Below, in pieces: positions 375 through 18,141 of a stretch of DNA of 64,000 bases. The position numbers and the translations under genes were made by a program. Where the stretch lies: positions 470 to 64,469 of the forward strand of contig DATNEI010000107.1 of assembly GCA_035606795.1 (NCBI GenBank), in the 5' to 3' direction. Under the pieces are notes generated by a model. That model was given only the letters and a program-made list of their open reading frames with translations. It ran no database searches and was not told the origin of the DNA. The DNA comes from Pyrinomonadaceae bacterium (lineage in GTDB: Bacteria; Acidobacteriota; Blastocatellia; Pyrinomonadales; Pyrinomonadaceae). Within the stretch, counting starts at the first letter, position 1. Each line of letters starts with the position of its first letter.

Positions 375-3300
375 CTAGAAGGTGCGGCCGACACTAAACC
401 TAAAGGTGGTTTTTTGCTCGTTGAAAATGAACGGAAACCCATCAATGAACTGGTCCTTCCGCGCCCGTGGATTATAAGCATAAATGAGGCGAAAAGGCAC
501 GTTCAGAACGGGCACTTGGAAACGCATTTCCCCGCCAATACTAGCCGCGAAATCGCCGATGCCGGCGAACTTGCTCTCGCTAAGTCGAGCCACGGTGTTG
601 GTTTGCGTCTCGCCGCGGACAAACACCGGCTGAAATCCGAACGGCATTTGCGTAATTGGATCGAGGATTCCCGTTTGTGCAGCATCCAGTTCAGCCTGCG
701 ACACAAGGTGATTATCGCGAGCCACAAGGCTCAAGAAAGGCGACACAGCAAACTGCGGATGCACGCAGAAAACGGCCGAACTCAACGACACCGGAGCTAC
801 CCCTCCGGAAAGACGCGGACAACTGATGAATCCCACGGTTTGCAGGAACGGTTGATCGGCGAGGAATTCGCTCGAGTAGCTTTGGTCGCCTTTTGTTCTC
901 AGGTTGAACGACGATCCGATGTCCGCGAAAAGTGCGGCCTGAACAATTTTCCCGAATACCGGAATGCGATATTCGAAGTTTCCGAGCAACTGTGTGTCGC
1001 CGCCAATGCGCGTCCACACGCGGCTGAGTTTCACCACGTTGTTGCCGGTGGAACCAGTAAACACTCCCACGTTTGCCAATGACGCAGGCAATCCCGTGTT
1101 CGCAGTGGCCGTGCCCGACGCCTGCGTAGAGAGGACGACATTGCGCGTGGTCAGGTAAAAATCGAGCGGCGCAAAGGGGCTGAGGCCGCGCGGGGGATAT
1201 CCGCGAATGGAAAATTCGTCGCCCAGGAAATATCTTTCGTAAATCGGAACGCCATCGACGAAGGCCAGCGAGTTGGCGTTTTTTATCTTGTCGGATATTC
1301 CAAACCAGGATCCGGTCGTACCAGCCTGAATGCGGAAGCCGAACACATGTGGGTGATCGGTCCTCTTGTTCCGCATTGGATAAAATTGCGTGTACTCGAT
1401 CGACGGTTGATAGGTGCGCACGTCCCCAAGCAGACCGGCTACTGCGAGTCCAATAGATAACGAACGACCTGATGTCGGATCGATGCCGCCTTTATAATCG
1501 CGAGCGTCATACACGAAGGTGCCGGTGATGCGGCTGGTGAGAATATTCGGCTGCCGGTAAACGACCGGAATGAACTGATCAGTGTTGCCCTGGGCGTTGA
1601 CCGGCGGGTCTTCTGTGCTGGACTGGCTGAAAAGGTACGAGAGGCCGACGCGCGAAAACTGCGTAAATGGACGCTTCCGATAAAATTCGGACAGCGGCGC
1701 GCTGGCGAATATCGACGCACCGAAAGACTTGCGCGTAAAAAGGTTTTCGGAACTGGTATTGAAGAAATCGACCGTCGAACCAAACAGGCCCTGCTGGGCG
1801 TTGACGTTTTGCGATAGCGAGGTACCCTCGCCAAAAAACTTTTGCGAATAAGCAAAGATCGAGAAGCCCGCGGTGATGGGCCGGTTCTTGATGTAGGGCT
1901 CAGTGAACGAGAAGCTGAAACTCCGCTGCCGATTGCCGGCAGCCAAATCGATTGACAGCACCTCGCCGCGGCCGAACAAGTTATTCGTCGAGTAGTGCAG
2001 TCCAAAGAAGGATCCGCCGATTCCCGAAACACCGCCGTTGAATGAAATCTCCTGCCGGCCTTTTTCAGAAACTTTGACAGTCACATCAACCAGCGCTTCT
2101 TCTTCGTTGGTGCGATAGTCGGCGTCTTTGTCCTTATCGATTGGATTGAAGTAACCGAGCTGATTCAGGCGCGTGATCGAGTATTCGAAATAGCTTTGGT
2201 TGTAGATGTCTCCTTCATTAATCAGCACCTCGCGCCGCAGCACGTTATCGCGCGTGAAGGTATTCCCGGTGAACTCCAAACGTCGCAGCGTAAACTGTTT
2301 GCCTTCGTCGATGGTGATCAGAAAATCCGCTACGCCTTCCTCAGCATTCTGCGGATTGTCCTTGAAGGTTGGCTGAATTTCCGCCGTGTACTGAATGAAG
2401 CCCTGGGCGCCGTAGGCTTTCTTTAGATTCTCGTACAAGGCCTTGCTGATAGCTTCGCCGTTGGCCACGTCGCCTTTGTTCAAACCAATGAAACCTTTGA
2501 TGAGCTGCTCGGAAAAGATCGAGTTGCCTTCAATCTTTAAGTCGCCGACGCGATAAAGCTTGCCTTCGGTTATGGGAACGGTAATGCGAAGCGTCTCGTC
2601 TGTTGACGAAAGAAACGGCACCGGCAGGATCGGGAAGCCGGTACGATGACGGCCCAGCCCTTCTATGCGCGGCTCGCCGTGACGCGCCTGCAAATAACCT
2701 TTCGAGCGCATGTAGTTGTCGACGAGGTGGAGATCGTAATCGAGCTTCTCGCGGTGCAGAATGTCCTGTTCTTTGAACCGCGAGAATAACCCCGACTCTT
2801 TCACCAGCTTCATCTGACTGCGCAACGTACCGCTCTTGAAAACCTTGCTCTCAAATTGAATCTCGGCCACCCGGACACGGTCGCCTTCTTCAATATTGAA
2901 AGTGATCGCGCTGGAAGTTGCGGAAACCTGCTCAACGTTCGCGCTCACCACAGCGTTCGGGTGTCCCTTCGCCGATAGTAGTTCCTTGATGACGCGTTCA
3001 GCAGCTTTGACTTTGACCGGATCCAGGATCGCCTCTTTCGAAACCCCCACCCGGCGCTCGCGAAAAGTTTTCAAGACATCCGATTCGGGAACGCTGTGCA
3101 GTCCTTCGAATTGAATGTCACGAATAATCGGGAGTTCCTTGACGTAGAAGGTGACGATCACGCCGCCGCGCGGCCCATCTTCGGTCGTCACACGGGTCTC
3201 GACCTTGTCAAAGAATCCGAGCGAGAGAATCGCCTGCAGATCACGCTCGACCTGCCCCGGGTTGAAGGCATCTCCGGGGCGGGTCTGGACCCAATAAAGG

Positions 3301-3494
3301 ATGTCATCTTTGCGCAGACGACGATTCCCAATGATGTCAACGCTTTCGACGAGACGTTGCGAAGGTTGCTGCTGGGCGGACGCGGATGTGGCGAAAGCCA
3401 GAGTAGAAATGGCGATGATGGCGTTTAGAACGGCAAGCCAAACGACGCGATATGAATGCATAAGTGCCGGTGTCAGAAGCCCGCGCATCAGCAA
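375..3494 (-). CDS. bamA: Outer membrane protein assembly factor BamA (Omp85 family)
   Basis: 1039-aa ORF with POTRA-like repeats (VESVDIIGNRRLRKDDILYWVQTRPGDAFNPGQVERDLQAILSLGFFDKVE...). The C-terminal beta-barrel region ends FRFSVGRTF with a terminal aromatic residue. It is longer than a typical BamA. Confidence 0.85.
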   Translation of the reverse strand: MLMRGLLTPALMHSYRVVWLAVLNAIIAISTLAFATSASAQQQPSQRLVESVDIIGNRRLRKDDILYWVQTRPGDAFNPGQVERDLQAILSLGFFDKVETRVTTEDGPRGGVIVTFYVKELPIIRDIQFEGLHSVPESDVLKTFRERRVGVSKEAILDPVKVKAAERVIKELLSAKGHPNAVVSANVEQVSATSSAITFNIEEGDRVRVAEIQFESKVFKSGTLRSQMKLVKESGLFSRFKEQDILHREKLDYDLHLVDNYMRSKGYLQARHGEPRIEGLGRHRTGFPILPVPFLSSTDETLRITVPITEGKLYRVGDLKIEGNSIFSEQLIKGFIGLNKGDVANGEAISKALYENLKKAYGAQGFIQYTAEIQPTFKDNPQNAEEGVADFLITIDEGKQFTLRRLEFTGNTFTRDNVLRREVLINEGDIYNQSYFEYSITRLNQLGYFNPIDKDKDADYRTNEEEALVDVTVKVSEKGRQEISFNGGVSGIGGSFFGLHYSTNNLFGRGEVLSIDLAAGNRQRSFSFSFTEPYIKNRPITAGFSIFAYSQKFFGEGTSLSQNVNAQQGLFGSTVDFFNTSSENLFTRKSFGASIFASAPLSEFYRKRPFTQFSRVGLSYLFSQSSTEDPPVNAQGNTDQFIPVVYRQPNILTSRITGTFVYDARDYKGGIDPTSGRSLSIGLAVAGLLGDVRTYQPSIEYTQFYPMRNKRTDHPHVFGFRIQAGTTGSWFGISDKIKNANSLAFVDGVPIYERYFLGDEFSIRGYPPRGLSPFAPLDFYLTTRNVVLSTQASGTATANTGLPASLANVGVFTGSTGNNVVKLSRVWTRIGGDTQLLGNFEYRIPVFGKIVQAALFADIGSSFNLRTKGDQSYSSEFLADQPFLQTVGFISCPRLSGGVAPVSLSSAVFCVHPQFAVSPFLSLVARDNHLVSQAELDAAQTGILDPITQMPFGFQPVFVRGETQTNTVARLSESKFAGIGDFAASIGGEMRFQVPVLNVPFRLIYAYNPRARKDQFIDGFPFIFNEQKTTFRFSVGRTF

Positions 3495-3750: not shown

Positions 3751-6126
<2,376 letters not shown>

Positions 6127-6567
6127 TTGTTTAGATTTTTATGATTGCCGCTGCGTGTTTAATCCCAAAATCACCACGCGCGGGCATTATAACCTAAGCA
6201 ACAAGCCCCTAGAAGTATCATATTTCCTGACCGGTTCATCACTTAAACTGTGGTTGCGACCGGAATTCGTCGTCGAAAGAATTCTGATGCGTCTCCGAAA
6301 CAAATGGGATCACCTACTCGCGGGCGTTCTTGGAACACACTCAAACTTCTCAACTGACGCATGACTCGTCGCTTAATCTGACCCTGTCATTCGTTCAACC
6401 TGACCGGACGCAGGCACGGGCAAGTGTTGTTTCATGTCGTGCTTAATCCGCAATAGCTCAACAACTTACATGAATCCCTACGCGATGGCACGCGCATAGC
6501 TAAAGAAACGTCGCCCGTGGAGTATCTCCTGGAGCTGGTCGACCCGATCCGACCAAACATTACAAGG

Positions 6568-9246
6568 ATGATAAAAATGAAAAGAACCCCCGCTGCCCCC
6601 GCCATCACCTGGCTGACTCTGGCCGCGCTGCTCATTACGACAGCGGCCACTTTTAGATTCAGCCCCGCGGCCCGCGCGCAAGTCTCGGAATCGATTGCGA
6701 CGGAAAACAGTCGCGCGATTCTTTCTAAATACGCGATTGACCTGACACAGCTTGCCGCACAAGGAAAACTCGAGTCGTTGCAGGGCTTCGATGCCGAAAT
6801 CAATCGTGTCATGGCTGCTTTGGCGCATTCATCGACCAAAGCTCCCGTCATTATCAGCGAGTCGGACGTAAATCGCGCCGCGGTAGCACGCGCGATCGCG
6901 ATGCGAATTGTTTCAGGTGACGCACCCGAAGCATTGCGCGGAAAACGCGTGTTGAGCTTGAACCTCGATGCGCTCGCCAAAGACGCGAAGACGAGCCAGG
7001 AATTCGAACGCCGCCTTCAGACGGTATTCAAGGCTGCCGCACAGACGAACGGTGAAGTTATCCTGTTTGTCGATCAACTTCATCAATATGCCGGCACGCG
7101 GGCCACCGCGACGGCCAGTGCAACTATCAAATCAGCGATTGTCGCGAACAGTATCCCGGTGATCGCAGGCGCCAGTCCGGAAGCTTTCAATTCCTACATC
7201 GTCACTGACGAGTCAGTCGCCAAACTGTTTGAATCAATTTCGCTCGACGGCGCCGCGGCCACTGCGACCAATTCAGATTCTCGTGACAAACGAAAGAGTC
7301 CAATTGATGAAGAGTTCGTCGGTGAGAAGATCGCGCCTGAGATGCGCGAATTGATTCGCAGCGCCGGACCGAACGGCCGCGTTTCGGCAATTCTTCAAGT
7401 TAGTGACGTAAACAATCGCGAAGTTCGCCGTTTGCTCGCGCGCAGCGGCATCACTCTCGGCGAGTCGATGGTGGCTCTTGGCGCCATGAAAGTAGATTTG
7501 CCCGTCAATGCGATTGAAGGGTTGATGAAGAACGACTCAATGAACTTCATCTCGCCCGACGTGACGTTAGAATCCTTCGGCCACATCACCGCGACTACCG
7601 GCACTGATCAAATACGCAATTCGCCGGGACTCCTTGCCGGCTTGCTGGGCGCCTCAGCGGTTGATGGCACTGGCGTGGGTATTGCGGTACTTGATTCAGG
7701 TCTCGATACCAGCCACGGTGCATTCACCACGGGAACCGCGCGCATCAAGTTCAGCAAGGACTTCACTGGAGAAAACATTACCTCGGCGGATCCGTATGGG
7801 CACGGAACGCACGTAGCGGGCTCAGCCGCCGGCGCCAGCTATTCAGACGGAACCAGATACCAGGGCATCGCTCCCGGGGCAACTATCATTAACCTGCGCG
7901 TACTCAACTCGAAAGGTACCGGTACAACTTCGGGTTTGCTGAACGCGCTGAACTGGATTCTCAGCCCGGCTGATCCGACAAAAGCAATCAGCTCAACCAA
8001 TCCGCGCAACAAGGACAAGTACAACATTCGCGTCGTCAATATGAGTTTGGGCGCGCCGGCAATTAGCTCCTACAAGAACGATCCGATTTGTCGCGCCGCT
8101 CGTGCCTTGGTCGACGCGGGAGTTGTAGTGGTCGCGGCTGCCGGTAACAACGGCAAGGACGCGAACGGCCGAAAGATCTACGGAGCCATTCACGCTCCCG
8201 GCAATGAACCTTCCGTAATTACGGTGGGCGCCGCAAACTCCTTCGGCACCGATGCTCGCAGCGACGATAGCGTAGCGACTTATAGCTCGCGCGGGCCAAC
8301 CCGCAGCAAGTGGACAGATGCGGGCGGAGTTGTCCATTACGACAACTTGCTCAAGCCCGATTTAGTCGCCCCAGGAAACAAGCTGATCTTTGCAGAATCA
8401 GACGCCGGGAGTAGTGGACTACTTGGAACTGGCTTGTTGGGTAGCGCTGTAACTTTGAATTATCTCGTCGACACTTATCCGTATCTGGATTCGGGTATTA
8501 GCGATAATGATAATCGCCGGCTGATGTATCTGAGTGGCAGCTCGATGGCTACGCCTGTTGTGACTGGCATCGCGGCACTGATGCTGCAGGTTAACCCCAA
8601 ACTCACACCAAACCTGGTCAAGCTAATCCTCATGTACACCGCCCAACCGCTAGCGGGCTGGAACATGCTCGAACAGGGTACCGGAGAAGTGAATGCTGAA
8701 GGTGCGTTACGCTTGGCGAAAATCGTGCGGACAAATCTGAGCGCGGCGACCCCGCAAGGCGATCCGTTGCTGACTACGACCACGGCACCGGATCCCCATA
8801 CGACTATTGCGGGTCAGAAGTTTACGTGGTCCCAGGGAGTAATGTTCAAACACTGGTATGCGAAAGGCACGAATCTGATTACGAAATATCATACGTACGA
8901 CGCGCTGGGTGTAGTACTCGGCGATGGCGTCGTGCTCGGCGATGGCGTCGTGCTCGGTGATGGCGTGGTGCTCGGTGATGGAGTGGTGCTGGGTGACGGT
9001 GTAGTTCTCGGCGACAGCATATTCACGAGCGCCGGCGTCGTTCTCGGCGATGGTTCTGTCTTTTGCAGCGGCGTCGTGTTAGGTGACGGCGTCGTATTGG
9101 GCGATGGCGTTGTCTTGGGCGATGGTGTCGTACTGGGTGACGGCGTCGTGCTGGGTGATGGCGTCGTGCTGGGTGATGGCAATCTCCAGGCAATGTCTCT
9201 GCGCGCAATGATCTACGGCGACAGCGGGCCGTATATGCATCCGTAA
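6568..9246 (+). CDS. Secreted S8 subtilisin-like serine protease with an N-terminal degenerate ClpB/C-type AAA+ module and C-terminal GVVLGD hexapeptide repeats (paralogue 1)
   Basis: The track ORF starts at GTG 6517. ATG 6568 or 6577 follows an aagga RBS and precedes the signal peptide MKMKRTPAAPAITWLTLAALLITTAATFRFSPAARAQ. The S8 triad is intact (VLDSGLD, HGTHVAG, SGSSMATP). The AAA+-like region is DLTQLAAQGKLE...ILFVDQLH. Confidence 0.85.
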   Translation: MIKMKRTPAAPAITWLTLAALLITTAATFRFSPAARAQVSESIATENSRAILSKYAIDLTQLAAQGKLESLQGFDAEINRVMAALAHSSTKAPVIISESDVNRAAVARAIAMRIVSGDAPEALRGKRVLSLNLDALAKDAKTSQEFERRLQTVFKAAAQTNGEVILFVDQLHQYAGTRATATASATIKSAIVANSIPVIAGASPEAFNSYIVTDESVAKLFESISLDGAAATATNSDSRDKRKSPIDEEFVGEKIAPEMRELIRSAGPNGRVSAILQVSDVNNREVRRLLARSGITLGESMVALGAMKVDLPVNAIEGLMKNDSMNFISPDVTLESFGHITATTGTDQIRNSPGLLAGLLGASAVDGTGVGIAVLDSGLDTSHGAFTTGTARIKFSKDFTGENITSADPYGHGTHVAGSAAGASYSDGTRYQGIAPGATIINLRVLNSKGTGTTSGLLNALNWILSPADPTKAISSTNPRNKDKYNIRVVNMSLGAPAISSYKNDPICRAARALVDAGVVVVAAAGNNGKDANGRKIYGAIHAPGNEPSVITVGAANSFGTDARSDDSVATYSSRGPTRSKWTDAGGVVHYDNLLKPDLVAPGNKLIFAESDAGSSGLLGTGLLGSAVTLNYLVDTYPYLDSGISDNDNRRLMYLSGSSMATPVVTGIAALMLQVNPKLTPNLVKLILMYTAQPLAGWNMLEQGTGEVNAEGALRLAKIVRTNLSAATPQGDPLLTTTTAPDPHTTIAGQKFTWSQGVMFKHWYAKGTNLITKYHTYDALGVVLGDGVVLGDGVVLGDGVVLGDGVVLGDGVVLGDSIFTSAGVVLGDGSVFCSGVVLGDGVVLGDGVVLGDGVVLGDGVVLGDGVVLGDGNLQAMSLRAMIYGDSGPYMHP
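8908..9180 (+). repeat. Coding 18-nt (hexapeptide GVVLGD) tandem repeats in two blocks
   Basis: (GVVLGD)x6, then SIFTSAGVVLGDGSVFCS, then (GVVLGD)x6-7. Units differ at synonymous positions. Confidence 0.9.
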
Positions 9247-9337
9247 TTTGACCGCCTTAAGAAGACCTGAACTTTTCAGGAGCCCACCTACAGCCGTCGG
9301 TTTCACCCCGCAAGATCGTCGCTCCTCTCGCCCTTCG

Positions 9338-9373
9338 AACCGGAATTCATCCTTAGCTGAATTCCGGTTTTTG
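9338..9373 (+). terminator. Rho-independent terminator after protease paralogue 1
   Basis: aaccggaattca-tccttagc-tgaattccggtt is a 12-bp perfect stem followed by tttt. Confidence 0.8.
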
Positions 9374-9637
9374 TCTCTGAAAAACTTCCACTCTCCGGCT
9401 CTCCCGTCCTTATCTAAAGCGCGCTAACAGAATCGTGAGTCATCTTCTTAATCTGACCTTTCCATCGTTCAACCTGACCGGACGAACCACAAGCAAGGGC
9501 CTATTTATCGAGCGTAATCCGCTATATTTCAATGACTTATGCGAATCCAAAGGGATGGCACGCGCATAGCTAAAGAAGCAGCGCCCGTGGGATTTTTCCC
9601 GGAGCTGGTCGACCCGATCCGACCAAACATTACAAGG

Positions 9638-12277
9638 ATGATGAAGATGAAAAGAACCCCTGCTGCCCCCGCCATCACCTGGCTGACTCTGGCCGCGCTG
9701 CTCATTACGACAGCGGCCACTTTTAGATTCAGCCCCGCGGCCCGCGCGCAAGTCTCGGAATCGATCGCGACGGAAAACAGTCGCGCGATTCTTTCTAAAT
9801 ACGCGATTGACCTGACACAGCTTGCCGCACAAGGAAAACTCGAATCCTTGCAGGGCTTCGATGCCGAGATTAATCGCGCCATCGCTGCTCTGGCGCGCTC
9901 ATCCACCAAAGCGCCGGTTGTGATCAGCGAGTCGGATGTGAATCGCCTCGGCTTAGCGCGTGCGATCGCACTGCGCATCGTTTCGGGTGACGCGCCGGAC
10001 GCATTACGCGGAAAGCGCGTGTTGAGCCTGAACCTCGATGCTCTTGCGAAAGACGCGAAGACAAGCCAGGAATTCGAACGGCGCGTCCAGGCCGTATTTG
10101 ATGCGGCCGCAGATGCCCAGGGAGAAATCATTCTTTTTGTCGACCAGCTTCATCAGTATGCGGGCACGCGTGCCACGGCCAGGGCTAGCGCAACGATCAA
10201 ATCAGCTATTGCCGCGAAGGGCATTTCGGTGATCGCAGGCGCCAGTCCCGAGGCTTTCAACTCGTACATCGCCACCGATGAGTCGGTCGCAAACCTGTTT
10301 GAATCAATTTCGCTTGATGGTGCGCTTTCAACCACAGCGACGTCTGAAATTGCCAAGGACAAACGCAAGAGTCCAATTAACGAAGAGTTCGCCGGTGAAA
10401 AGATTGCGCCTGAAATGCGCGAGTTGATTCGCAGCGCCGGACCCAACGGCCGCGTCTCGGCAATTCTTCAAGTGAGTGATGTAAACAGTCGCGAAGTTCG
10501 CGCGTGGCTGGCACGTAATGGCGTTTTAGTAGGTGACAGCATGGCGAACTTGGGAACGATGAAGGTGGATTTGCCCGCTCGCGCGGTCGAAGCCCTGATG
10601 CAGAACAGATCGATGAACTTCATTTCGGCGGATGTAAAGATCGAGTCCTTCGGTCACGTCACCGCCACTAGCGGCGCCGATCAAATTCGCAACGCGCCGG
10701 CGCTACTAGGCGGCTTGTTAAGCGGGACAGCCATTGATGGGACCGGCATCACGATCGCAATCATTGATTCGGGCATGGACCTCAGCCACGTTGCGTTTCA
10801 GCCTGGCGGCCGCGTGAAATTCAAAAAGGATTTCACTCCTGAAAATAAGCCTGATAAGGATTTCTACGGCCATGGCAGTCACGTCGCAGCATTGGCAGCA
10901 GGAAATTATACGAATGGAACAGGCACTAGCTATCAGGGCATTGCCTACAATGCCAGCTTCGTGAACCTGCGGGTGCTCGACTCCAATGGCGTGGGCTCGA
11001 CCTCAACGCTACTCGCAGCACTGAATTGGTTCCTGACGCCGGCCGACCCCAGCAAACCACTCAGTAGCTCAAACCCATTAAACAAGGACAAGTACGCGAT
11101 TCGCGTTGTAAACATGAGCCTGGGCACCCCCGCTGTGAGCTCATACCAGAACGATCCCATTTGCCGCGCCAGTCGCGCTCTCGTTGATGCGGGCCTGGTC
11201 GTAGTCGCCGCCGCCGGCAACAGCGGCAAAGATGCGAACGGAAACAAAATCTATGGTCAGATTCACTCGCCCGGCAACGAGCCATCGGTGATTACTGTCG
11301 GCGCCGCCAACACGTTCGGCACTGATTCACGTGCTGACGATGTCGTAGCGACCTATAGCTCGCGTGGTCCAACTCGCAGCTATTGGACGGACGCCAATGG
11401 CGTCAAGCATTTCGACAACATTCTGAAACCGGAACTGGTCGCTCCTGGCAACAAGCTCATCAATGCCGAAGCTGACGATGGGGGCTCCAATCCCAATAAC
11501 CTGGTGAAGCAGAACCCATCACTCGATGCGGGTATCAGCACTTCGGACAACAAAAGGATGATGTACTTGAGCGGCACTTCAATGGCCACACCGGTGGTCG
11601 CGGGAGCAGCGGCCCTGATGCTGCAAATCAATCCGAAGCTGACACCGAACATGGTGAAGATGGCTTTGATGTACACGTCAGATCCGCTTGCCGGAGCGAA
11701 CATGCTGGAACAGGGCACAGGCGAAGTTAACGTTGAAGGCGCCTGCCGTCTGGCGAAAGCAATACGCACCGACCTGACGTCAAGTACAGCCCAGGACAGT
11801 CCAATGCTGACGACTTCTGCTCCGAATCCGCAAACGACGATCGCGGGATACACGTTCACGTGGGCGCAAGGGATCCTATTCAAGCGCTGGTACGCGAAAG
11901 GCACCCCCCTAATCACGAACTATCAAACCTATTACGCTCAGGGCGTGGTGCTGGGTGATGGCATTGTGCTTGGTGACGGTGTCGTACTTGGTGATGGCGT
12001 CGTGCTCGGGGACGGTGTGGTGCTCGGCGACGGAGTTGTGCTGGGCGACAACATTTACACGAGTGACGGCGTCGTCCTCGGTGACGGCACTCTGTTTTGC
12101 AGCGGTGTCGTGTTGGGCGATGGCATTCTGCTTGGTGACGGGGTCGTACTGGGCGACGGCATTCTGCTCGGAGATGGCGTAGTGCTAGGCGACGGCGTGG
12201 TGCTGGGTGATTCAGCAGTTCAGGCCATGTCGGTCCGCGCAATGATCTTCGGCGACCTGGGCCCTTCAATGCACTAA
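9638..12277 (+). CDS. Secreted S8 subtilisin-like serine protease with degenerate AAA+ module and hexapeptide repeats (paralogue 2)
   Basis: The track ORF starts at 9539; ATGs at 9638, 9641 and 9647 precede the same signal peptide. The triad is IIDSGMD, HGSHVAA, SGTSMATP. Domain order matches paralogue 1. Confidence 0.85.
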   Translation: MMKMKRTPAAPAITWLTLAALLITTAATFRFSPAARAQVSESIATENSRAILSKYAIDLTQLAAQGKLESLQGFDAEINRAIAALARSSTKAPVVISESDVNRLGLARAIALRIVSGDAPDALRGKRVLSLNLDALAKDAKTSQEFERRVQAVFDAAADAQGEIILFVDQLHQYAGTRATARASATIKSAIAAKGISVIAGASPEAFNSYIATDESVANLFESISLDGALSTTATSEIAKDKRKSPINEEFAGEKIAPEMRELIRSAGPNGRVSAILQVSDVNSREVRAWLARNGVLVGDSMANLGTMKVDLPARAVEALMQNRSMNFISADVKIESFGHVTATSGADQIRNAPALLGGLLSGTAIDGTGITIAIIDSGMDLSHVAFQPGGRVKFKKDFTPENKPDKDFYGHGSHVAALAAGNYTNGTGTSYQGIAYNASFVNLRVLDSNGVGSTSTLLAALNWFLTPADPSKPLSSSNPLNKDKYAIRVVNMSLGTPAVSSYQNDPICRASRALVDAGLVVVAAAGNSGKDANGNKIYGQIHSPGNEPSVITVGAANTFGTDSRADDVVATYSSRGPTRSYWTDANGVKHFDNILKPELVAPGNKLINAEADDGGSNPNNLVKQNPSLDAGISTSDNKRMMYLSGTSMATPVVAGAAALMLQINPKLTPNMVKMALMYTSDPLAGANMLEQGTGEVNVEGACRLAKAIRTDLTSSTAQDSPMLTTSAPNPQTTIAGYTFTWAQGILFKRWYAKGTPLITNYQTYYAQGVVLGDGIVLGDGVVLGDGVVLGDGVVLGDGVVLGDNIYTSDGVVLGDGTLFCSGVVLGDGILLGDGVVLGDGILLGDGVVLGDGVVLGDSAVQAMSVRAMIFGDLGPSMH
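11941..12211 (+). repeat. Coding hexapeptide (G[VI][VL]LGD) tandem repeats in two blocks
   Basis: GVVLGDGIVLGDGVVLGD..., then NIYTSDGVVLGDGTLFCS, then GVVLGDGILLGDGVVLGD... Confidence 0.9.
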
Positions 12278-12339: not shown

Positions 12340-13227
12340 ATGGCAGTTACCATGATGAAGGCCGAACTCGCTGTGCCGCCGCAATTCTTCGCGTCCGAAT
12401 TTGCTTGCGAGCAATTGTTCCCGGGCGATGAGTCCGAAGTCCTTGAATTCCTGGCGAACCGCGCAATTCATACGGTCTACATGGCGACATTGATTCGCGA
12501 CAACGGCCTCGTCAGCCCCAACAATCGGGGCGCTTTTTACGGTTGTCGCGACCGCGCAAAAAATTTGCTAGGCGTAGCGCTCATCGGACATGCTACTATT
12601 GTCGAGGCGCGCACCGATTCTGCGGTTGCCGCCTTTGCCCAACTGGCTGCCTACAGCCACCATGCATCCCTCATTCGTGGAGAACGCAAGACGGTCGATA
12701 GTTTCTGGGAGCATTTTGCTGCTACCGGTCAAACTTCGCGCCTAATCTGTCGCGAGCTTCTCTTTGAAAAGAAAGACGTCACGCCGCTTCCGGAACATCT
12801 TGCACATCTGCGTCCGGCGACCGCGGATGACATCGAACATGTGCTGGAGGTTAATGCCACGCTCGCTTTGGAAGAAGGGGGCATCAATCCCTTCCAGCGC
12901 GATCCGCTGGGCTTCCGCGCTCGCACCGCCCGCCGCGTTAAGCAAGGTCGAGTGTGGCTCGGCGTCAAAGATGACAAGGTGATCTTCAAGGCCGACATCG
13001 TCGGAGACACACCTGAGGCGATTTACCTGGAGGGAATTCACGTTAGTCCCGAAGAGCGCATGAAGGGTCACGGTAAACGATGTCTCGCGCAACTATCGTC
13101 AACGCTGCTGCGCCGCACTAAGACGATTTGCCTCGCCGTCAATCAACGGAAAGCCGACACCGTCGCGTTCTACGTTAAGGCCGGTTTCGACTTCCATAGC
13201 GAATACGAAACGATCTATCTCGGTTAA
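12340..13227 (+). CDS. GNAT-family N-acetyltransferase (C-terminal GNAT fold; N-terminal domain of unknown function)
   Basis: C-terminal GIHVSPEERMKGHGKRCLAQL...AFYVKAGF resembles an acetyl-CoA binding motif. RBS aggaga lies 5 nt upstream. Only 62 nt separate it from protease paralogue 2. Confidence 0.55.
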   Translation: MAVTMMKAELAVPPQFFASEFACEQLFPGDESEVLEFLANRAIHTVYMATLIRDNGLVSPNNRGAFYGCRDRAKNLLGVALIGHATIVEARTDSAVAAFAQLAAYSHHASLIRGERKTVDSFWEHFAATGQTSRLICRELLFEKKDVTPLPEHLAHLRPATADDIEHVLEVNATLALEEGGINPFQRDPLGFRARTARRVKQGRVWLGVKDDKVIFKADIVGDTPEAIYLEGIHVSPEERMKGHGKRCLAQLSSTLLRRTKTICLAVNQRKADTVAFYVKAGFDFHSEYETIYLG

Positions 13228-13248: not shown

Positions 13249-15519
13249 TTGGTCCATTCATCCCCCGCAAACAATAGTCTGACTCTGTCCACGGCTTATC
13301 GCTGTGTCGTAGTCGTCTGCGGTGTGGCCGCCACCATCTATGCGGCCACGTCCATGCCGCTGCCGAAGTTGGATTTGCGCTTTCTGCTGTTGGCGATGAT
13401 CACTGTGATCGTCAGCTCACGCTTCGCGGTTAAGATTCCGCGCGCTAACACCAACGTTACTGTCTCCGACACATTCATATTTCTTGCGCTGCTTGTCTAC
13501 GGAGGTTTTGCCGGAATTTTTCTGGCGGCTGCTGAAGGCTTGATCTCGGGGATTCGAATCACCAAAAAACCGCTCAACGTCGCATTTAACGCCGCGATGA
13601 TGGCCTGTTCGACCTTCCTAACGGTGGTGATCACCAGATTTTTCTTCGGCCCGATCGCGGACCTGCGCTTCAAAGGTTGGCAACACTTCGTAGCAGCCGT
13701 CGGCGCGATGGCGCTCGCCCAATATTTCATTAACACCGGCATCAGCGCCACCGGTCTGGCGCTGAAAACACACGAGGGCATCCTTCGCACCTGGCATACA
13801 CACTATCTCTGGACCTCAATCACCTACATTTCGGGAAGCATCGTCGCGGCCATCACCGCGAATTCGTTCGAACGCGCCGGCTTCGCGATTCTGATTGTGG
13901 GTACGCCGGTCATCTCGATCGTTTACTTCACCTATCACAAGTATCTCGACGAAATTAAGGCCAGCGCCGAACAGGCGGAACAGGCCGAGCGCGAACGCGC
14001 TGAAGCGGAGGGTGCTCGCGCCGAAGCTGAACGCGCGCGCGCCGAACAGGCCGAACGTCACGTCGAAGAACTGAATCGCCACATCACCGAACAGGAACGC
14101 ATCAGTGTCCAGCTCCAGGAAAGCAAAGATCACTTTCGCCACGCGGCGTTCCACGACACGCTCACGAATCTGCCCAATCGCGCGCTGCTGGCTGAGAATT
14201 TAAAGTTCGTGATCGAGCGTGTGAAGCAGCACGAGGATTATCAATTCGCGGTGCTCTTCCTCGACCTCGATCGCTTTAAGAACGTGAACGATAGTCTGGG
14301 CCACTCGATCGGCGATCAACTGCTGATCGCGATGGCGCGACGGCTGGAACACTGCATTCGCGACGCCGATATGGTTGCGCGTCTCGGCGGCGACGAGTTC
14401 GCGATATTGCTCGACGGTATTTCCAGCGCTGCCGATCCGACGAACATGGCCAAGCGTATTCAGGAGAAACTCGAGTCGCCCTTCAACTTAAGCGGCCACG
14501 AGGTGTTCACCACGACCAGCATCGGCATCGCCATGAGTTCCGCGGGCTACGATCACCCCGAAGCCATCCTGCGCGACGCCGACACTGCGATGTATCGTGC
14601 CAAAGCGCAGGGCAAAGCTTGTTACGAAGTCTTCGACAAAGGTATGCACGCGCGCGCGGTGTACCTGCTGCAAATGGAAACGGACCTGCGGCGCGCGCTC
14701 GATCGCGAAGAGTTTCGCGTTCACTATCAGCCGATTGTTTCGCTCGAGAATGGACAGCTCGCCGGCTTTGAAGCGCTGATTCGTTGGGAGCATCCGGAGC
14801 GTGGCTCTGTGAATCCCGGCGACTTCATTTCACTGGCCGAGGATACGGGACTGATTGCGCCGATTGGCATGTGGGTTTTGAAACGCGCTTGCCAGCAGCT
14901 GGCGAAGTGGCAGTGGCGATCGCACGCGCACCGCAATCTGTTCATGAGCGTCAATCTTTCCAGCAAGCAGCTGGGACAGACCGCGCTGGTAAGTGAGATT
15001 CGCGAGATCTTGCAGGAGACGCACGTTGAGCCGCGCACTCTGAAACTGGAAATCACGGAAAGCGCCGTCATGGAGAATGCTGAGACGGCCGTACAGCTTC
15101 TCCGTCGTTTGAAAGCGCTGGGCGTGCAGCTGAGCATCGACGATTTCGGCACCGGCTATTCGTCACTCGGCTACCTGCACCGCTTCCCCGTCGACACTCT
15201 TAAGATTGACCGTTCGTTCGTCGGCCGCATCGGCGAAGCTTCCGAGAACATCGAAATCGTTCGCACGATCGTCTCACTGGCTGACAACATGGGCATGGAC
15301 GTGGTCGCCGAAGGCGTGGAAACGCTGGCGCAATTCGGTTCGCTACGCTCGCTGAATTGTCAGTACGGCCAGGGTTATCTGTTCTCTCGGCCGGTTGATG
15401 CGACCACGATAGACGGCTGGATTTCCCGCACTCCCGATTGGCAAGCAGCGCTGTTTCCGCAGAGCGACAGCAAGGTTATCCCGGTCGCTGCACCCGTCGT
15501 GCAGTTGCGATCAGCTTAG
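13249..15519 (+). CDS. Membrane-bound GGDEF/EAL signalling protein (diguanylate cyclase/phosphodiesterase)
   Basis: TTG start in the track. There are about 6 N-terminal TM helices and an Ala/Glu/Arg coiled coil (AEQAEQAERERAEAEGARAEAERARAEQAERH). The GGDEF motif is RLGGDEFAILL; the EAL domain shows FEALIRWEHP and DDFGTGYSSL. Confidence 0.9.
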   Translation: MVHSSPANNSLTLSTAYRCVVVVCGVAATIYAATSMPLPKLDLRFLLLAMITVIVSSRFAVKIPRANTNVTVSDTFIFLALLVYGGFAGIFLAAAEGLISGIRITKKPLNVAFNAAMMACSTFLTVVITRFFFGPIADLRFKGWQHFVAAVGAMALAQYFINTGISATGLALKTHEGILRTWHTHYLWTSITYISGSIVAAITANSFERAGFAILIVGTPVISIVYFTYHKYLDEIKASAEQAEQAERERAEAEGARAEAERARAEQAERHVEELNRHITEQERISVQLQESKDHFRHAAFHDTLTNLPNRALLAENLKFVIERVKQHEDYQFAVLFLDLDRFKNVNDSLGHSIGDQLLIAMARRLEHCIRDADMVARLGGDEFAILLDGISSAADPTNMAKRIQEKLESPFNLSGHEVFTTTSIGIAMSSAGYDHPEAILRDADTAMYRAKAQGKACYEVFDKGMHARAVYLLQMETDLRRALDREEFRVHYQPIVSLENGQLAGFEALIRWEHPERGSVNPGDFISLAEDTGLIAPIGMWVLKRACQQLAKWQWRSHAHRNLFMSVNLSSKQLGQTALVSEIREILQETHVEPRTLKLEITESAVMENAETAVQLLRRLKALGVQLSIDDFGTGYSSLGYLHRFPVDTLKIDRSFVGRIGEASENIEIVRTIVSLADNMGMDVVAEGVETLAQFGSLRSLNCQYGQGYLFSRPVDATTIDGWISRTPDWQAALFPQSDSKVIPVAAPVVQLRSA

Positions 15520-15529
15520 TCACACTGCA

Positions 15530-17182
15530 CTAAAAACACTTCTTCACTTCTTCCGGTCGATTCTCAGGCAAAAGATTTTCGAGATGTGGTTGAGCAGTCG
15601 CTCCGGCATCTGCGCTGGGGCGAACTTCGTAAATTGTCGCCGCGATCTGCTTGAAGTGAAACTGCGACTCGAGTTGTGCGAGTTCGCGAATCTCTCCGGC
15701 TTGCCACGAACACGGTTGCCACCAGCGCGAATCGATGTCGAGAAAAACTCTGTGGCCGGCGCGCAGGTCTTCTTCGATCTTCTGCTGCAGCTTTCCCGCC
15801 GGAAAGCCCGCGCCAATACCAATGTGCTCCCACTGCCCGATGCCGATGCCGCGCCAGTAAGTCACCGCCACAGTGGCAAAGCCCGCGACTACTACGCCAT
15901 CGCTGGGCAGCAGACGCAAGCGCGCACTGTAGTCCTTCGCGAACTCGAGCCGAGCACGATAATCATGAATCCGCGTGCGTAGGAGAACTCCCATCGCTAA
16001 CGCGATGCAAAGTATGAGCGCAATTAAGACTGCGATAGTTCGGCGTGGACTCTTCAGTTTCTCAGACCCGAAATTCAACAGGAAATTCGCGACAAGTGGC
16101 GTGGTCGCAGGCAGTCCGGTAACGAAGTAACGCCAATTGATTACGGTGCTGTAGTAAAGGATCAGCGTCGCATTCGCGAAAAATCCCACGCTCGCCGCGA
16201 GCAGCAACAATGTCCACCCGCGCCGGCGCCATTCGTAGACCAGCGCGGGCAGCAAGGCGACCAGAACGACGGGTGAAACCAGAAAGAAATAGGCGAAGAA
16301 CGGCTTGAGGTTCGCGAGCGCCAGTGGATGCCGGGAAGCTTCGCTGCGCCCCGACTCAAGCCAGACATACCACTGTGTGCGATAGTCAGCGCTTGACGCG
16401 AACCAAACAGCAAACGGTCCCACCGCGAAGAGAACAAAAACGAGCAGCGAGCCTGCGACTATAGCAATCGTCCTTCGATCGAACTTCCATCCGGCAACCA
16501 AAGGCGCGAGCACGAGCCAGGGAAAGTAAAACGCATTCGTCTCGCGCAGATTAACGGCCAATCCCAGCAGCGCTGCACCTATTAAGATTAACCAAACGCG
16601 CTCGCTTCGTAGTCCGCGCAAATGAACGATCAGCGCTGCCGCCAAAAGCCAGACCGACGGCACCTCCGTCATAACCTGGCTGCCGTAAATCACAACCACT
16701 GGACAGACCGCGATGAGAAGCGCGGCGACTGTGGCAGCCAACAACGACGTCGTCAGATCGCGCGCGAGAATCCAACACATGACGATGGCCAGGGGAACTT
16801 GCGCCACGACTGCGTACTTGAACAGCAAGTAAGCGTGCTCGGGACCAACTCCGAAAACTTTGTGCGCGCACGTGTAGAGCACGAAGTTGAAGAGCGTGAA
16901 GAGCGAACGTCCCAGCGCCATCGGCGACGGCTGGCCGTGCAGAGACGCAATCGTGTAATCGAGCGCGTCCCAATCGCCGATGAAAGGATTCAGATAAAGC
17001 AGGGTGAGCGCGAGACCGAGCAGCGCCGGCGGCAGCCAGAATGAATACGAGTACCAGAAAGAATTCCGAGGGGGAACAGTTGTTTCAGCAGAATCTGAGA
17101 CAGACACCACGAAAGATTTAATTACCGAGAGGCCCCGAAGAGATCTGATGCAATACCGGCGGTGGTTCAGCAGAAGACGCAC
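15530..17182 (-). CDS. Polytopic membrane protein, GT-C-like glycosyltransferase fold suspected (ArnT/PMT-like)
   Basis: At least 10 hydrophobic segments, an early periplasmic-loop acidic motif GDWDALDY, and a soluble C-terminal domain. The exact start is uncertain. Confidence 0.35.
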   Translation of the reverse strand: MRLLLNHRRYCIRSLRGLSVIKSFVVSVSDSAETTVPPRNSFWYSYSFWLPPALLGLALTLLYLNPFIGDWDALDYTIASLHGQPSPMALGRSLFTLFNFVLYTCAHKVFGVGPEHAYLLFKYAVVAQVPLAIVMCWILARDLTTSLLAATVAALLIAVCPVVVIYGSQVMTEVPSVWLLAAALIVHLRGLRSERVWLILIGAALLGLAVNLRETNAFYFPWLVLAPLVAGWKFDRRTIAIVAGSLLVFVLFAVGPFAVWFASSADYRTQWYVWLESGRSEASRHPLALANLKPFFAYFFLVSPVVLVALLPALVYEWRRRGWTLLLLAASVGFFANATLILYYSTVINWRYFVTGLPATTPLVANFLLNFGSEKLKSPRRTIAVLIALILCIALAMGVLLRTRIHDYRARLEFAKDYSARLRLLPSDGVVVAGFATVAVTYWRGIGIGQWEHIGIGAGFPAGKLQQKIEEDLRAGHRVFLDIDSRWWQPCSWQAGEIRELAQLESQFHFKQIAATIYEVRPSADAGATAQPHLENLLPENRPEEVKKCF

Positions 17183-17262: not shown

Positions 17263-18141
17263 TCAGCATCCATCTCGTCGAACGAGTGCAGGAAGAACGG
17301 CACCCGCGCAGCCGCAACGATCGCAATCAGCTTTCGGACCGAGGATACATTTTTCTTTGCGATTGCCGCTGACATCCCACGACGCCATCCGCGATGAAGC
17401 CAAACAGTTGTCCGTGACGGTGCGGCAGTTTTCCGATCGCATCATATTCAGGGTATGCGTCGTATCCTCAACCAAGTGCGGGTACTTTGCTTTGATCGCG
17501 ATGATACGATCAATGACTCGATCACGCTCTTCGTAATTCAGCCAGAGCTTATCCGCTTCCGGTTGGCCGTGCATGTAAGTATAGAACTCGAAGATGATGC
17601 CCGCGGTGAGGGGTTCGTTCTTCCATTCTTCAACGAATTGTTCCAGGTCGCCTTCGTTCTCGCGCGTTAACACGGTCGCGATGCCAATGCGCAAGCCGCG
17701 TTCAGCCGCGTCGCGAATCATGCGCTTGATGCGCTGATAGGTCTTCGCGCCACGCAAGCGATCGTGTCGCTCTTCAACGCCATCGACTGAAACTTTGAAA
17801 TTGACGTGCGGCCAGTCAGGAATGCGAATCGTTCCGTTGGTCACTACCATGTTGCGGCGAAAATACTTCGAGCCCATCTCAATGATTTCCTGGCGCATCA
17901 ACGGCTCGCCGCCGACCCAACTGCACGAGAAGAAGGAAAAGCCTTCCGCTTTCAATTTGTCAAAGAAGGCGCGCCAACGCTCGACCGCGAGATTCTCGGG
18001 CTGCTCATGCTCGAAGAAGTAACAATGATGACAGCGCAGATTGCACTGGTTGGTCACGTCAACGGAACAGACGGCATCCTGCGGAATACCCATCAGCGCA
18101 AAGCGCGTCAGTTGATAGAGAGGATTTGTTTTTCGAGCCAT
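17263..18141 (-). CDS. Radical SAM protein
   Basis: CxxxCxxC cluster VTNQCNLRCHHCYF, plus a C-terminal Cys cluster (CILGPKADCDRCGC). Confidence 0.8.
   Translation of the reverse strand: MARKTNPLYQLTRFALMGIPQDAVCSVDVTNQCNLRCHHCYFFEHEQPENLAVERWRAFFDKLKAEGFSFFSCSWVGGEPLMRQEIIEMGSKYFRRNMVVTNGTIRIPDWPHVNFKVSVDGVEERHDRLRGAKTYQRIKRMIRDAAERGLRIGIATVLTRENEGDLEQFVEEWKNEPLTAGIIFEFYTYMHGQPEADKLWLNYEERDRVIDRIIAIKAKYPHLVEDTTHTLNMMRSENCRTVTDNCLASSRMASWDVSGNRKEKCILGPKADCDRCGCAGAVLPALVRRDGC

Follow-up and report, generated by a model that had tools for sequence, protein, structure and literature searches.

Predicted secreted subtilases of Acidobacteriota carry an ATPase-dead, ClpB-like AAA+ module ahead of a propeptide-like unit

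Introduction

AAA+ domains are textbook ATP-driven cytoplasmic motors, and two tandem genes in a genome of the family Pyrinomonadaceae (phylum Acidobacteriota; assembly GCA_035606795.1, contig DATNEI010000107.1) raise the question of what the remains of such a domain might be doing in a protease that appears to be destined for export. The genes lie at 6568..9246 (protease 1) and 9638..12277 (protease 2) of a stretch of 64,000 nucleotides, here called the window, which covers positions 470 to 64,469 of the contig; coordinates below are those of the window unless another locus is named, and all features of the two proteases are on the forward strand. An earlier note, made from the sequence alone, had described the two products as secreted subtilases that carry a catalytically dead ClpB/ClpC-type module, and had suggested that the module was captured from the clpC gene beside them. 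We find that the description holds but that the suggested origin is not supported, and we propose that the module is most simply seen as a passive accessory of the protease pro-region.

Results

Both proteases contain the core of a ClpB-type D1 domain

The open reading frame (ORF) listing and its translation place protease 1 in a mechanical ORF at 6517/6568..9246. Its start codon is the ATG at 6568, with AAGGA just 5' of it, or the ATG at 6577, and the precursor has about 890 residues. Protease 2 is a paralogue, 76% identical to protease 1 over the full length in a pairwise protein alignment, and its mechanical ORF is 9539/9638..12277. The 5' extension of this ORF to the ATG at 9539 (9539-9637) can be aligned, as DNA, with the non-coding region upstream of protease 1 and contains a sigma54-like motif; the true start is therefore most likely 9638 or 9647. 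Both ORFs lie where the earlier note had put them, and the peptide strings that it quoted are exact.

Behind the N-terminal signal sequence each protein has a module of about 190 residues (precursor residues 37-226, encoded at 6679..7248, in protease 1; 9749-10318 in protease 2). Residues ~39-230 match positions 144-338 of the 853 in the NCBIfam ClpB equivalog model TIGR03346, with E-values of 2e-37 and 1e-36 for the two proteins, and this span of the model coincides exactly with the large alpha/beta subdomain of D1, the first AAA+ module. The ClpV, ClpK, ClpG and ClpA models of NCBIfam also match. A sequence search of the PDB gave nucleotide-binding domain 1 (NBD1) of ClpB at an E-value of 6e-33 and 36-38% identity, and the module is 31% identical to the neighbouring ClpC (E 1e-24), so that the homology with a D1 large subdomain, which the earlier note had drawn by eye, is far beyond chance. 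By contrast with these searches, the Pfam AAA model reached only a sub-threshold E-value of 1.5e-3, and the module is found only through NCBIfam and the PDB. The predicted structure agrees with the AAA+ assignment rather than with another fold: an AlphaFold2 model of the module alone has a predicted local distance difference test score (pLDDT) of 69, rising to 75-87 for the module within a full-length run, and the top Foldseek match of the module model is the isolated NBD1 of Escherichia coli ClpB, 1jbk (E 1.2e-12, probability 1.00). Nothing else of a Clp protein could be found. The Pfam models Clp_N, AAA_lid_9, AAA_2 and ClpB_D2-small, all of which match the neighbouring ClpC, have no match in the proteases, and the whole-protein score against the ClpB equivalog model is 129 bits, below the cut-off of 1232.

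It can be seen from the alignment with real Clp proteins that the active-site motifs have been lost. The Walker A sequence GEPGVGKT is replaced by SESDVNRA in protease 1 (6856..6879), the two paralogues having SESDVNR(A/L), and the catalytic glutamate of Walker B is replaced by glutamine, giving LFVDQLH (7063..7083; VDQLH in place of IDELH). Both changes had been noticed before in both paralogues and are borne out by the alignment. To these we can add pore loop 1, which now reads AKDAKTSQEFE (6976..7008) where real Clp proteins have AGxKYRGEFE, so that the tyrosine is gone (KTSQEFE compared with KYRGQFE); sensor-1, where GATT has become GASP; and the arginine fingers, where VAKLFES (7216..7236) stands in place of LERRFQ and both arginines are replaced (AKLFE compared with ERRFQ). 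A Walker A motif of the form GxxGxGK[ST] is absent from all ~138 dead-module sequences collected as described below. Because the catalytic and mechanical residues have all been replaced, and because the lid subdomain, the second AAA+ domain (D2) and the N-domain are missing, the module is predicted to be incapable of hydrolysing ATP, as the earlier note had proposed. Very probably it also lacks ATP binding and the usual hexameric ring; hexamer formation was considered and judged unlikely, since both the lid subdomain and nucleotide binding are missing. By defining motifs and by architecture, then, the two proteins are not members of the Clp/Hsp100 ATPase family.

The proteases have the features of exported pre-pro-subtilases

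Hydropathy and motif analysis of protease 1 (6577..6678; MKR...ARA/QV) shows a basic n-region, MKMKR, an 18-residue hydrophobic core and a cleavage motif of the AxA type, ARA/QV; the corresponding signal peptide of protease 2 is at 9647-9748. By heuristic, this is the tripartite organisation of a Sec/signal peptidase I substrate. The same heuristic was passed by 36/36 of the family genes at the loci surveyed and by 107/130 dead-module proteins, as against 3/63 real Clp ATPases, and a small-x-small motif (of AxA, SAQ or TAQ type) follows the h-region in all 36 locus genes. We conclude that both proteases, as judged by these features, are probably exported through Sec as pre-pro-subtilases, in line with the Sec-type signal peptide claimed earlier for both ORFs.

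Downstream of the module is a low-confidence linker of ~25 residues (7249..7320; pLDDT ~32) that is probably disordered. It leads into a propeptide-like unit (7321..7575), a helix followed by a beta-alpha-beta-alpha-beta arrangement, which ends ...LES before FGHITATTGTDQIR and contains the conserved motif F-G-[DE]-x-[IV]-[SA]-P-[DE]-[LM]-R-E-[LM]. In the full-length AlphaFold2 model the beta-alpha-beta-alpha-beta unit lies directly before the S8 domain at a pLDDT of 53-74, and Pfam propeptide models matched it below threshold (Fervidolysin_NPro in 2/29 members, E 0.03; Pro-kuma_activ, 0.06).

The Peptidase_S8 domain itself is at 7666..8652 in protease 1 and at 10739-11695 in protease 2. The two domains reach 154 and 161 bits with PF00082, whose cut-off is 21.8 (E 5e-45 and 4e-47), and the model matches all 29 full-length family members, in which the catalytic triad and the oxyanion asparagine (AAAGNNG) are invariant. 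The triad of protease 1 is Asp375 (7693-7695), His411 (7801-7803) and Ser658 (8542-8544), and that of protease 2 is Asp376 (10766-10768), His411 (10871-10873) and Ser647 (11579-11581). The propeptide-like segment and intact triad that the earlier note placed behind the module are both there, and the proteins are bona fide S8 subtilases. The full-length AlphaFold2 model is poor for the S8 domain, where the alignment is shallow, and this part was excluded from Foldseek and from any inference about domain docking.

Each protease ends in 13-14 near-perfect GVVLGD hexapeptide repeats (8908..9177 in protease 1, with 13 exact-pattern units; ~11939-12211 in protease 2). The Pfam hexapeptide model PF00132 gives 51 bits, its cut-off being 27, and matches 25/29 members, and the predicted structure, at a modest pLDDT of 55-64, has a three-residue strand every six residues, as in a beta-helix. 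To our knowledge a left-handed beta-helix is unusual on an exported protease; it is possible that it serves in trimerisation, in surface attachment or as a secretion signal. Other clades have the repeat as GIIVSD, GVLVSD or GTLLAD, and the repeats are followed by a conserved tail, ..QAMSxRAMIxGDxGPxMH.

The architecture defines a family confined to Acidobacteriota

When the N-terminal 340 residues were used as query in a word-indexed search, 69 relatives were obtained. All of them are fragments from Pyrinomonadaceae/Acidobacteria metagenomes, and their entries read 'S8 family serine peptidase' or 'hypothetical', or bear the mistaken name 'ClpA/ClpB' given by JGI. A genome scan gave 38 loci, all in metagenome-assembled genomes (MAGs) of Blastocatellia/Pyrinomonadaceae, and an exhaustive profile search of 1.84 billion representatives gave ~80 clusters (at 50% identity) with a signal peptide and a dead D1. 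Classification by motif showed that the module in these clusters begins only a few residues behind a signal-peptide-like N-terminus and lacks the Walker A lysine. Every dead-module protein that is long enough also has the propeptide-like unit and the S8 domain. The single exception is P0200 (565 aa, on a 2.2-kb contig), in which a signal peptide and a dead module are followed by the beginning of the propeptide and no S8 domain could be detected. Two further proteins, P0123 (1019 aa) and P0146 (666 aa), are cytoplasmic-looking and Clp-like and have a degenerate Walker A in an internal D1-like module; they represent other kinds of dead Clp module.

Several patterns of degeneration can be told apart. 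The window's clade has SESDxxR with VDQ, and a paralogue type not linked to this locus has SDSQAVRD with IDPIQ. In a third subgroup, with GESGxxxx, the Walker B DE and the sensor-1 GATT are retained although the Walker A lysine is still lost, and other subgroups exist. All members with a named taxon are Acidobacteriota. Neither a model in Pfam, NCBIfam or PADLOC nor a description in the literature searched was found for the combination of S8 with a Clp D1, which agrees with the earlier note, whose author knew of no secreted protease with a degenerate Hsp100 module. We conclude that the architecture is not a local accident, and that these proteins form an Acidobacteriota-specific subtilase family with a pseudo-AAA+ domain, probably of the pro-region, that had not been recognised previously.

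The module is maintained as a fold

For the module, the two window paralogues give a ratio of non-synonymous to synonymous substitution rates (dN/dS) of 0.10. Comparisons of orthologues give 0.06-0.36, typically ~0.15, as compared with ~0.07 for the S8 domain. Since the ratio stays within 0.06-0.36 in every pair tested, the module is maintained by purifying selection, though the constraint on it is looser than that on the catalytic domain. By column entropy the parts of the protein fall, from most to least conserved, in the order S8, C-terminus, propeptide-like unit, module and linker (equal) and signal peptide, a gradient such as would be expected if the module were a pro-region-like part.

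To see what is being conserved, ~80 dead representatives were compared site by site with 68 real Clp D1 domains. All of the polar functional positions that are at least 85% conserved in real Clp proteins have been lost from the dead modules; among them are the arginine of GRD, the RRTKNN box, the G/G/K/T of Walker A, the pore-loop glycine, KP..R, the sensor-1 threonine and the arginine fingers. The positions retained are leucine, alanine, glycine, proline and phenylalanine residues of the core, and the only consensus residues that could be called 'gained' are alanine and leucine. No new polar site common to the whole dead-module family was found among the ~80 representatives. Across the family, what is conserved is a fold and not a site. 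The earlier note had suggested that the module could be a substrate-recognition scaffold, a decoy or an intramolecular chaperone; as conservation is of the fold only, a conserved specific binding site is argued against.

The divergence between the two window paralogues is mosaic. Between 6460-6700 and 9530-9770 the two copies are 97-100% identical through ~110 bp of upstream sequence, the signal peptide and the first part of the module, and the synonymous divergence (dS) is 0.07 in this 5' stretch, 0.70 in the module and saturated in S8. The same pattern was seen between some orthologues (L002/L035 and L003/L015). It suggests gene conversion or recombination at the 5' end between two S8 'types'.

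An origin of the module in the neighbouring clpC is not supported

The genuine clpC, on the reverse strand at 3751..6126, encodes a protein with Clp_N, AAA, AAA_lid_9, AAA_2 and D2-small domains and is a conserved divergent neighbour, 441 bp from the ATG at 6568; no further Clp-like gene and no further gene of the protease family was found in the 64-kb window. Chance adjacency to a Clp gene is unlikely a priori, the divergent arrangement is kept in ~30 Pyrinomonadaceae/Blastocatellia loci, and the least degenerate paralogue, copy 1 of locus L027 (Walker A GEAGPDVA), which is 40% identical to ClpC, lies directly beside clpC. All of this would favour the suggestion that the module was captured locally from clpC. 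However, the similarity data point elsewhere. The window's ClpC scored 123.6 bits against the module profile, whereas the best real Clp ATPases in the search of 1.84 billion representatives scored 165-183 bits and carry the ClpB-type motifs AGAKYRGEFE and ALERRFQ. Against the PDB the window module ranks ClpB (118 bits) above ClpC (91), as does L027 copy 1 (ClpB 164; ClpC1/ClpC 148/145), and this is the reverse of the ranking given by a genuine ClpC D1 (ClpC 258; ClpB 245).

Neighbour-joining (NJ) analysis of 85 taxa over 176 core columns led to the same view. The dead modules were monophyletic in 97.5% of 200 bootstraps, the real sequences nearest to them were ClpB-like, and in the distance matrix the ClpC proteins of Pyrinomonadaceae were among the real Clp proteins farthest from every dead module examined. 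Moreover, many branches of the dead clade, among them the divergent L036, L039 and L040, are not beside clpC. Local capture from clpC is therefore improbable, and this part of the earlier note is not supported; within the window's clade the adjacency is old. Instead the module appears to have arisen once, from a ClpB-like gene, and to have diversified together with the protease after that single origin. The ClpB-like parentage is read from a similarity ranking and not from a resolved tree, because the best NJ support for a sister group of the dead clade is 0.29 and the closest real ClpB-like representatives come without taxa.

A sigma54-type promoter motif precedes the protease genes

A sigma54-type -24/-12 motif, TGGCACGCGCATAGC, lies at 6486..6500, 68 nt upstream of the ATG at 6568, and an identical one is at 9556..9570, 68 nt upstream of the ATG at 9638. 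Aligning the upstream regions of the two window paralogues with those of six orthologues revealed an invariant TGGCAC-N5-T(C/A)GC with the -24/-12 spacing of sigma54 promoters; there is GG at -24 and GC at -12, in the spacing of TGGCAC-N5-TTGCW. The motif has only two matches in 64 kb, both upstream of the proteases, and it occurs no more than 400 nt upstream of 31/36 family genes (at ~40-220 nt in loci L001-L035). A promoter scan found no sigma70 consensus. Protease expression is probably sigma54-dependent, as far as promoter sequence can tell. Further conserved upstream blocks (TTAAnTTGAC, TCGTTCAACCTGAC, TAATCC and ACTTA) may be enhancer sites.

No gene for a sigma54 activator was found in the window. 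At loci of the unlinked paralogue type (SDSQAVRD/IDPIQ), a protein of ~1030 aa with TPR, Sigma54_activat and HTH_8 domains is encoded directly after the protease (12789-15878 in L036 and 6813-9905 in L040). Between 6050 and 9800 there was no Rfam match to a riboswitch or other RNA at E <= 1. A strong terminator-like hairpin with a 13-bp stem and a T run (GAACCGGAATTC...GAATTCCGGTT) lies between the two protease genes at 9337..9370 on the forward strand, and a related palindrome, CCGGAATTC...GAATTC, is found at ~6255-6290 in the intergenic region between clpC and protease 1.

The surrounding gene order is conserved

Protease 2 is followed on the same strand by a GNAT-like gene with a DUF4081-like N-terminus (12340-13227) and by a gene for a membrane GGDEF-EAL protein with ~5 transmembrane (TM) helices and then a coiled coil (13249-15519). 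Beyond these, on the reverse strand, are a PMT_2-family membrane glycosyltransferase (15530-17182) and a radical SAM protein (17263-18141), and on the far side of clpC, also on the reverse strand, is an unusually long BamA of 1039 aa with five POTRA domains and an Omp85 domain (375-3494); all three are syntenic in related MAGs. The order BamA and clpC (reverse), protease, GNAT-like and GGDEF-EAL genes (forward), PMT_2 glycosyltransferase (reverse) is kept in ~30 Pyrinomonadaceae/Blastocatellia loci.

The GNAT-like and GGDEF-EAL genes are thus syntenic with the protease in ~30 loci, and in L027 the three genes have been duplicated as a cassette (GNAT-like at 5628-6536 and GGDEF-EAL at ~6664-9009 of that locus). 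This co-duplication suggests a functional link to cyclic di-GMP (c-di-GMP) signalling. Docking of the protease on the GGDEF-EAL protein in the manner of LapD/LapG was considered and judged unlikely, because the ~5 TM helices at the N-terminus of the latter lie close together and a large periplasmic domain is lacking. The PADLOC anti-phage models gave only generic 'subtilase' and weak IetS matches on the S8 domain, and no match for the neighbouring genes.

Discussion

What might a dead motor domain be doing in an exported protease? The reading that we favour, if only by a modest degree, is that these proteins are exported pre-pro-subtilases in which a ClpB-like D1 of single origin serves the pro-region as a passive structural accessory that needs no nucleotide. 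As a rule, subtilase precursors process themselves at the junction of the pro-region and the catalytic domain, and because the module is N-terminal of the propeptide-like unit, such an accessory is the simplest thing for it to be. It would extend the pro-region at its N-terminal end as a bulky domain with a stable fold, tethered to the subtilase-type propeptide by a flexible linker of ~25 residues and exported with the zymogen. Autoprocessing of the precursor near ...(L/I)ES/FGH would then separate the module from the mature enzyme, after which the module may survive on its own as a secreted fragment. It would carry out no substrate remodelling, and most likely its effect would be a passive one, on folding, on solubility, on latency or on when the enzyme is activated. 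That a domain of this extent might stand on its own is consistent with the ClpB NBD1 core, which has been crystallised as an isolated domain of the same extent (1jbk, 189-195 residues).

Several points weigh against this proposal. Export, processing and the absence of nucleotide binding are all deduced from sequence, cleavage between the propeptide and S8 is expected by analogy with subtilases in general, and the propeptide assignment draws on predicted secondary structure, a pLDDT of 53-74 and sub-threshold Pfam matches. It is also somewhat surprising that a purely passive domain should have been kept over ~80 divergent clusters. Within the window's clade the sequence that replaces the P-loop, (S/G)ESDxxR, is invariant, and a clade-specific function of this site is possible. 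Lastly, the conserved adjacency to clpC becomes a coincidence without explanation, or possibly reflects shared regulation.

The main rival reading is that the dead D1 remains on the mature enzyme, joined to it by a covalent bond or held as a pro-fragment that binds tightly. There it could bind substrates, partners or the cell envelope, for example as an ATP-free, holdase-like capture surface, or it could bring about oligomerisation. The purifying selection on the module would be accounted for, as would the invariance, within the window's clade, of SESDxxR and of an FVDQ..QY block, and the left-handed beta-helix repeats at the C-terminus could provide for oligomerisation. We nevertheless regard this as possible rather than likely, as the broad family has no conserved polar site in common, the pore-loop tyrosine and the KP..R loop have gone, there is no lid subdomain to make the contacts of an AAA+ ring, and the module lies N-terminal of the propeptide-like unit, which is normally removed by cleavage. 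That the N-terminus is an uncleaved signal-anchor, by which the dead D1 and the protease would be held at the outer surface of the inner membrane and not released, seems to us improbable: at 18 residues the h-region is rather long, and cleavage is judged by motif only, but that small-x-small motif follows the h-region in each of the 36 locus genes. Least credible of all is that the module is a fusion remnant that has no function and is decaying. Among the folded parts of the protein it is the one least conserved, and every active-site residue is gone; yet the dN/dS values contradict decay in every pair tested, the module is full length with no truncation in ~80 divergent clusters, and AlphaFold2 predicts it to be well folded.

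The preferred reading, that of a passive pro-region accessory, can be set against known systems. With NBD1 of ClpB/Hsp104 (1jbk, 4hse, 1qvr) the module shares the whole alpha/beta core with its boundaries, the predicted fold and the conserved hydrophobic core. Unlike NBD1, it has no Walker A lysine or threonine, Walker B glutamate, sensor-1, arginine fingers or pore-loop tyrosine, there is no lid, M-domain, D2 or N-domain, and it is placed behind a signal peptide and fused to a protease. Like the classical pre-pro-subtilases (S8A with an I9-type propeptide; fervidolysin, aqualysin, subtilisin E/BPN'), the proteases start with a signal peptide, have an alpha/beta propeptide-like unit immediately ahead of a catalytic domain whose triad is intact, and carry an additional domain at the C-terminus. 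They differ from them in the ~190-residue AAA+-derived domain between signal peptide and propeptide, in the hexapeptide beta-helix at the C-terminus, and in a propeptide that falls below the Pfam thresholds for I9 and Fervidolysin_NPro. A precedent for the layout of the precursor is WprA of Bacillus subtilis, which is processed to CWBP23 and CWBP52; its large N-terminal pro-region, which is not AAA+-derived, gives a stable and separate extracytoplasmic product.

An AAA+ module and a protease also occur in one polypeptide in Lon and FtsH. These are cytoplasm-facing, ATP-driven hexameric unfoldase-proteases in which the AAA+ module is complete and active, whereas here it is truncated, dead and apparently exported, and the protease part is a subtilase. 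AAA+ folds without nucleotide chemistry are found as structural or regulatory partners in the clamp-loader subunit delta' and in the luminal domains of LAP1/LULL1, the latter acting in a non-cytosolic compartment. These pseudo-ATPases pair with an active AAA+ partner, though, and no such partner is possible outside the bacterial cytoplasm; the present module differs from them too in its Clp/Hsp100 D1 lineage and its fusion to S8.

In practical terms the module is an unannotated domain family, and it cautions against annotating such fragments as Clp ATPases. For the AAA+ superfold it would represent a motor domain that has been cut down to its alpha/beta core, moved to an ATP-free compartment and maintained there by selection, that is, a pseudoenzyme domain kept purely as a fold. 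On the sequence evidence this would be exaptation of a cytoplasmic motor domain outside the cytoplasm, and the evidence so far points to no new mechanism. There is some chance, though we would not put it high, that the dead NBD1 has a real extracytoplasmic job that needs no ATP, as a holdase-like module for capture or latency by which the activity of the protease is delivered or timed, or as a secreted protein set free once the zymogen is processed; if true, it would be the first bacterial Clp/Hsp100 domain exapted for a function outside the cytoplasm. In that case it might also be tied to a programme linked to sigma54 and c-di-GMP, by way of the co-duplicated GNAT and GGDEF-EAL genes. For the soil Acidobacteriota, which are abundant but poorly studied, the family represents a lineage-specific secreted protease system that is probably under the control of sigma54.

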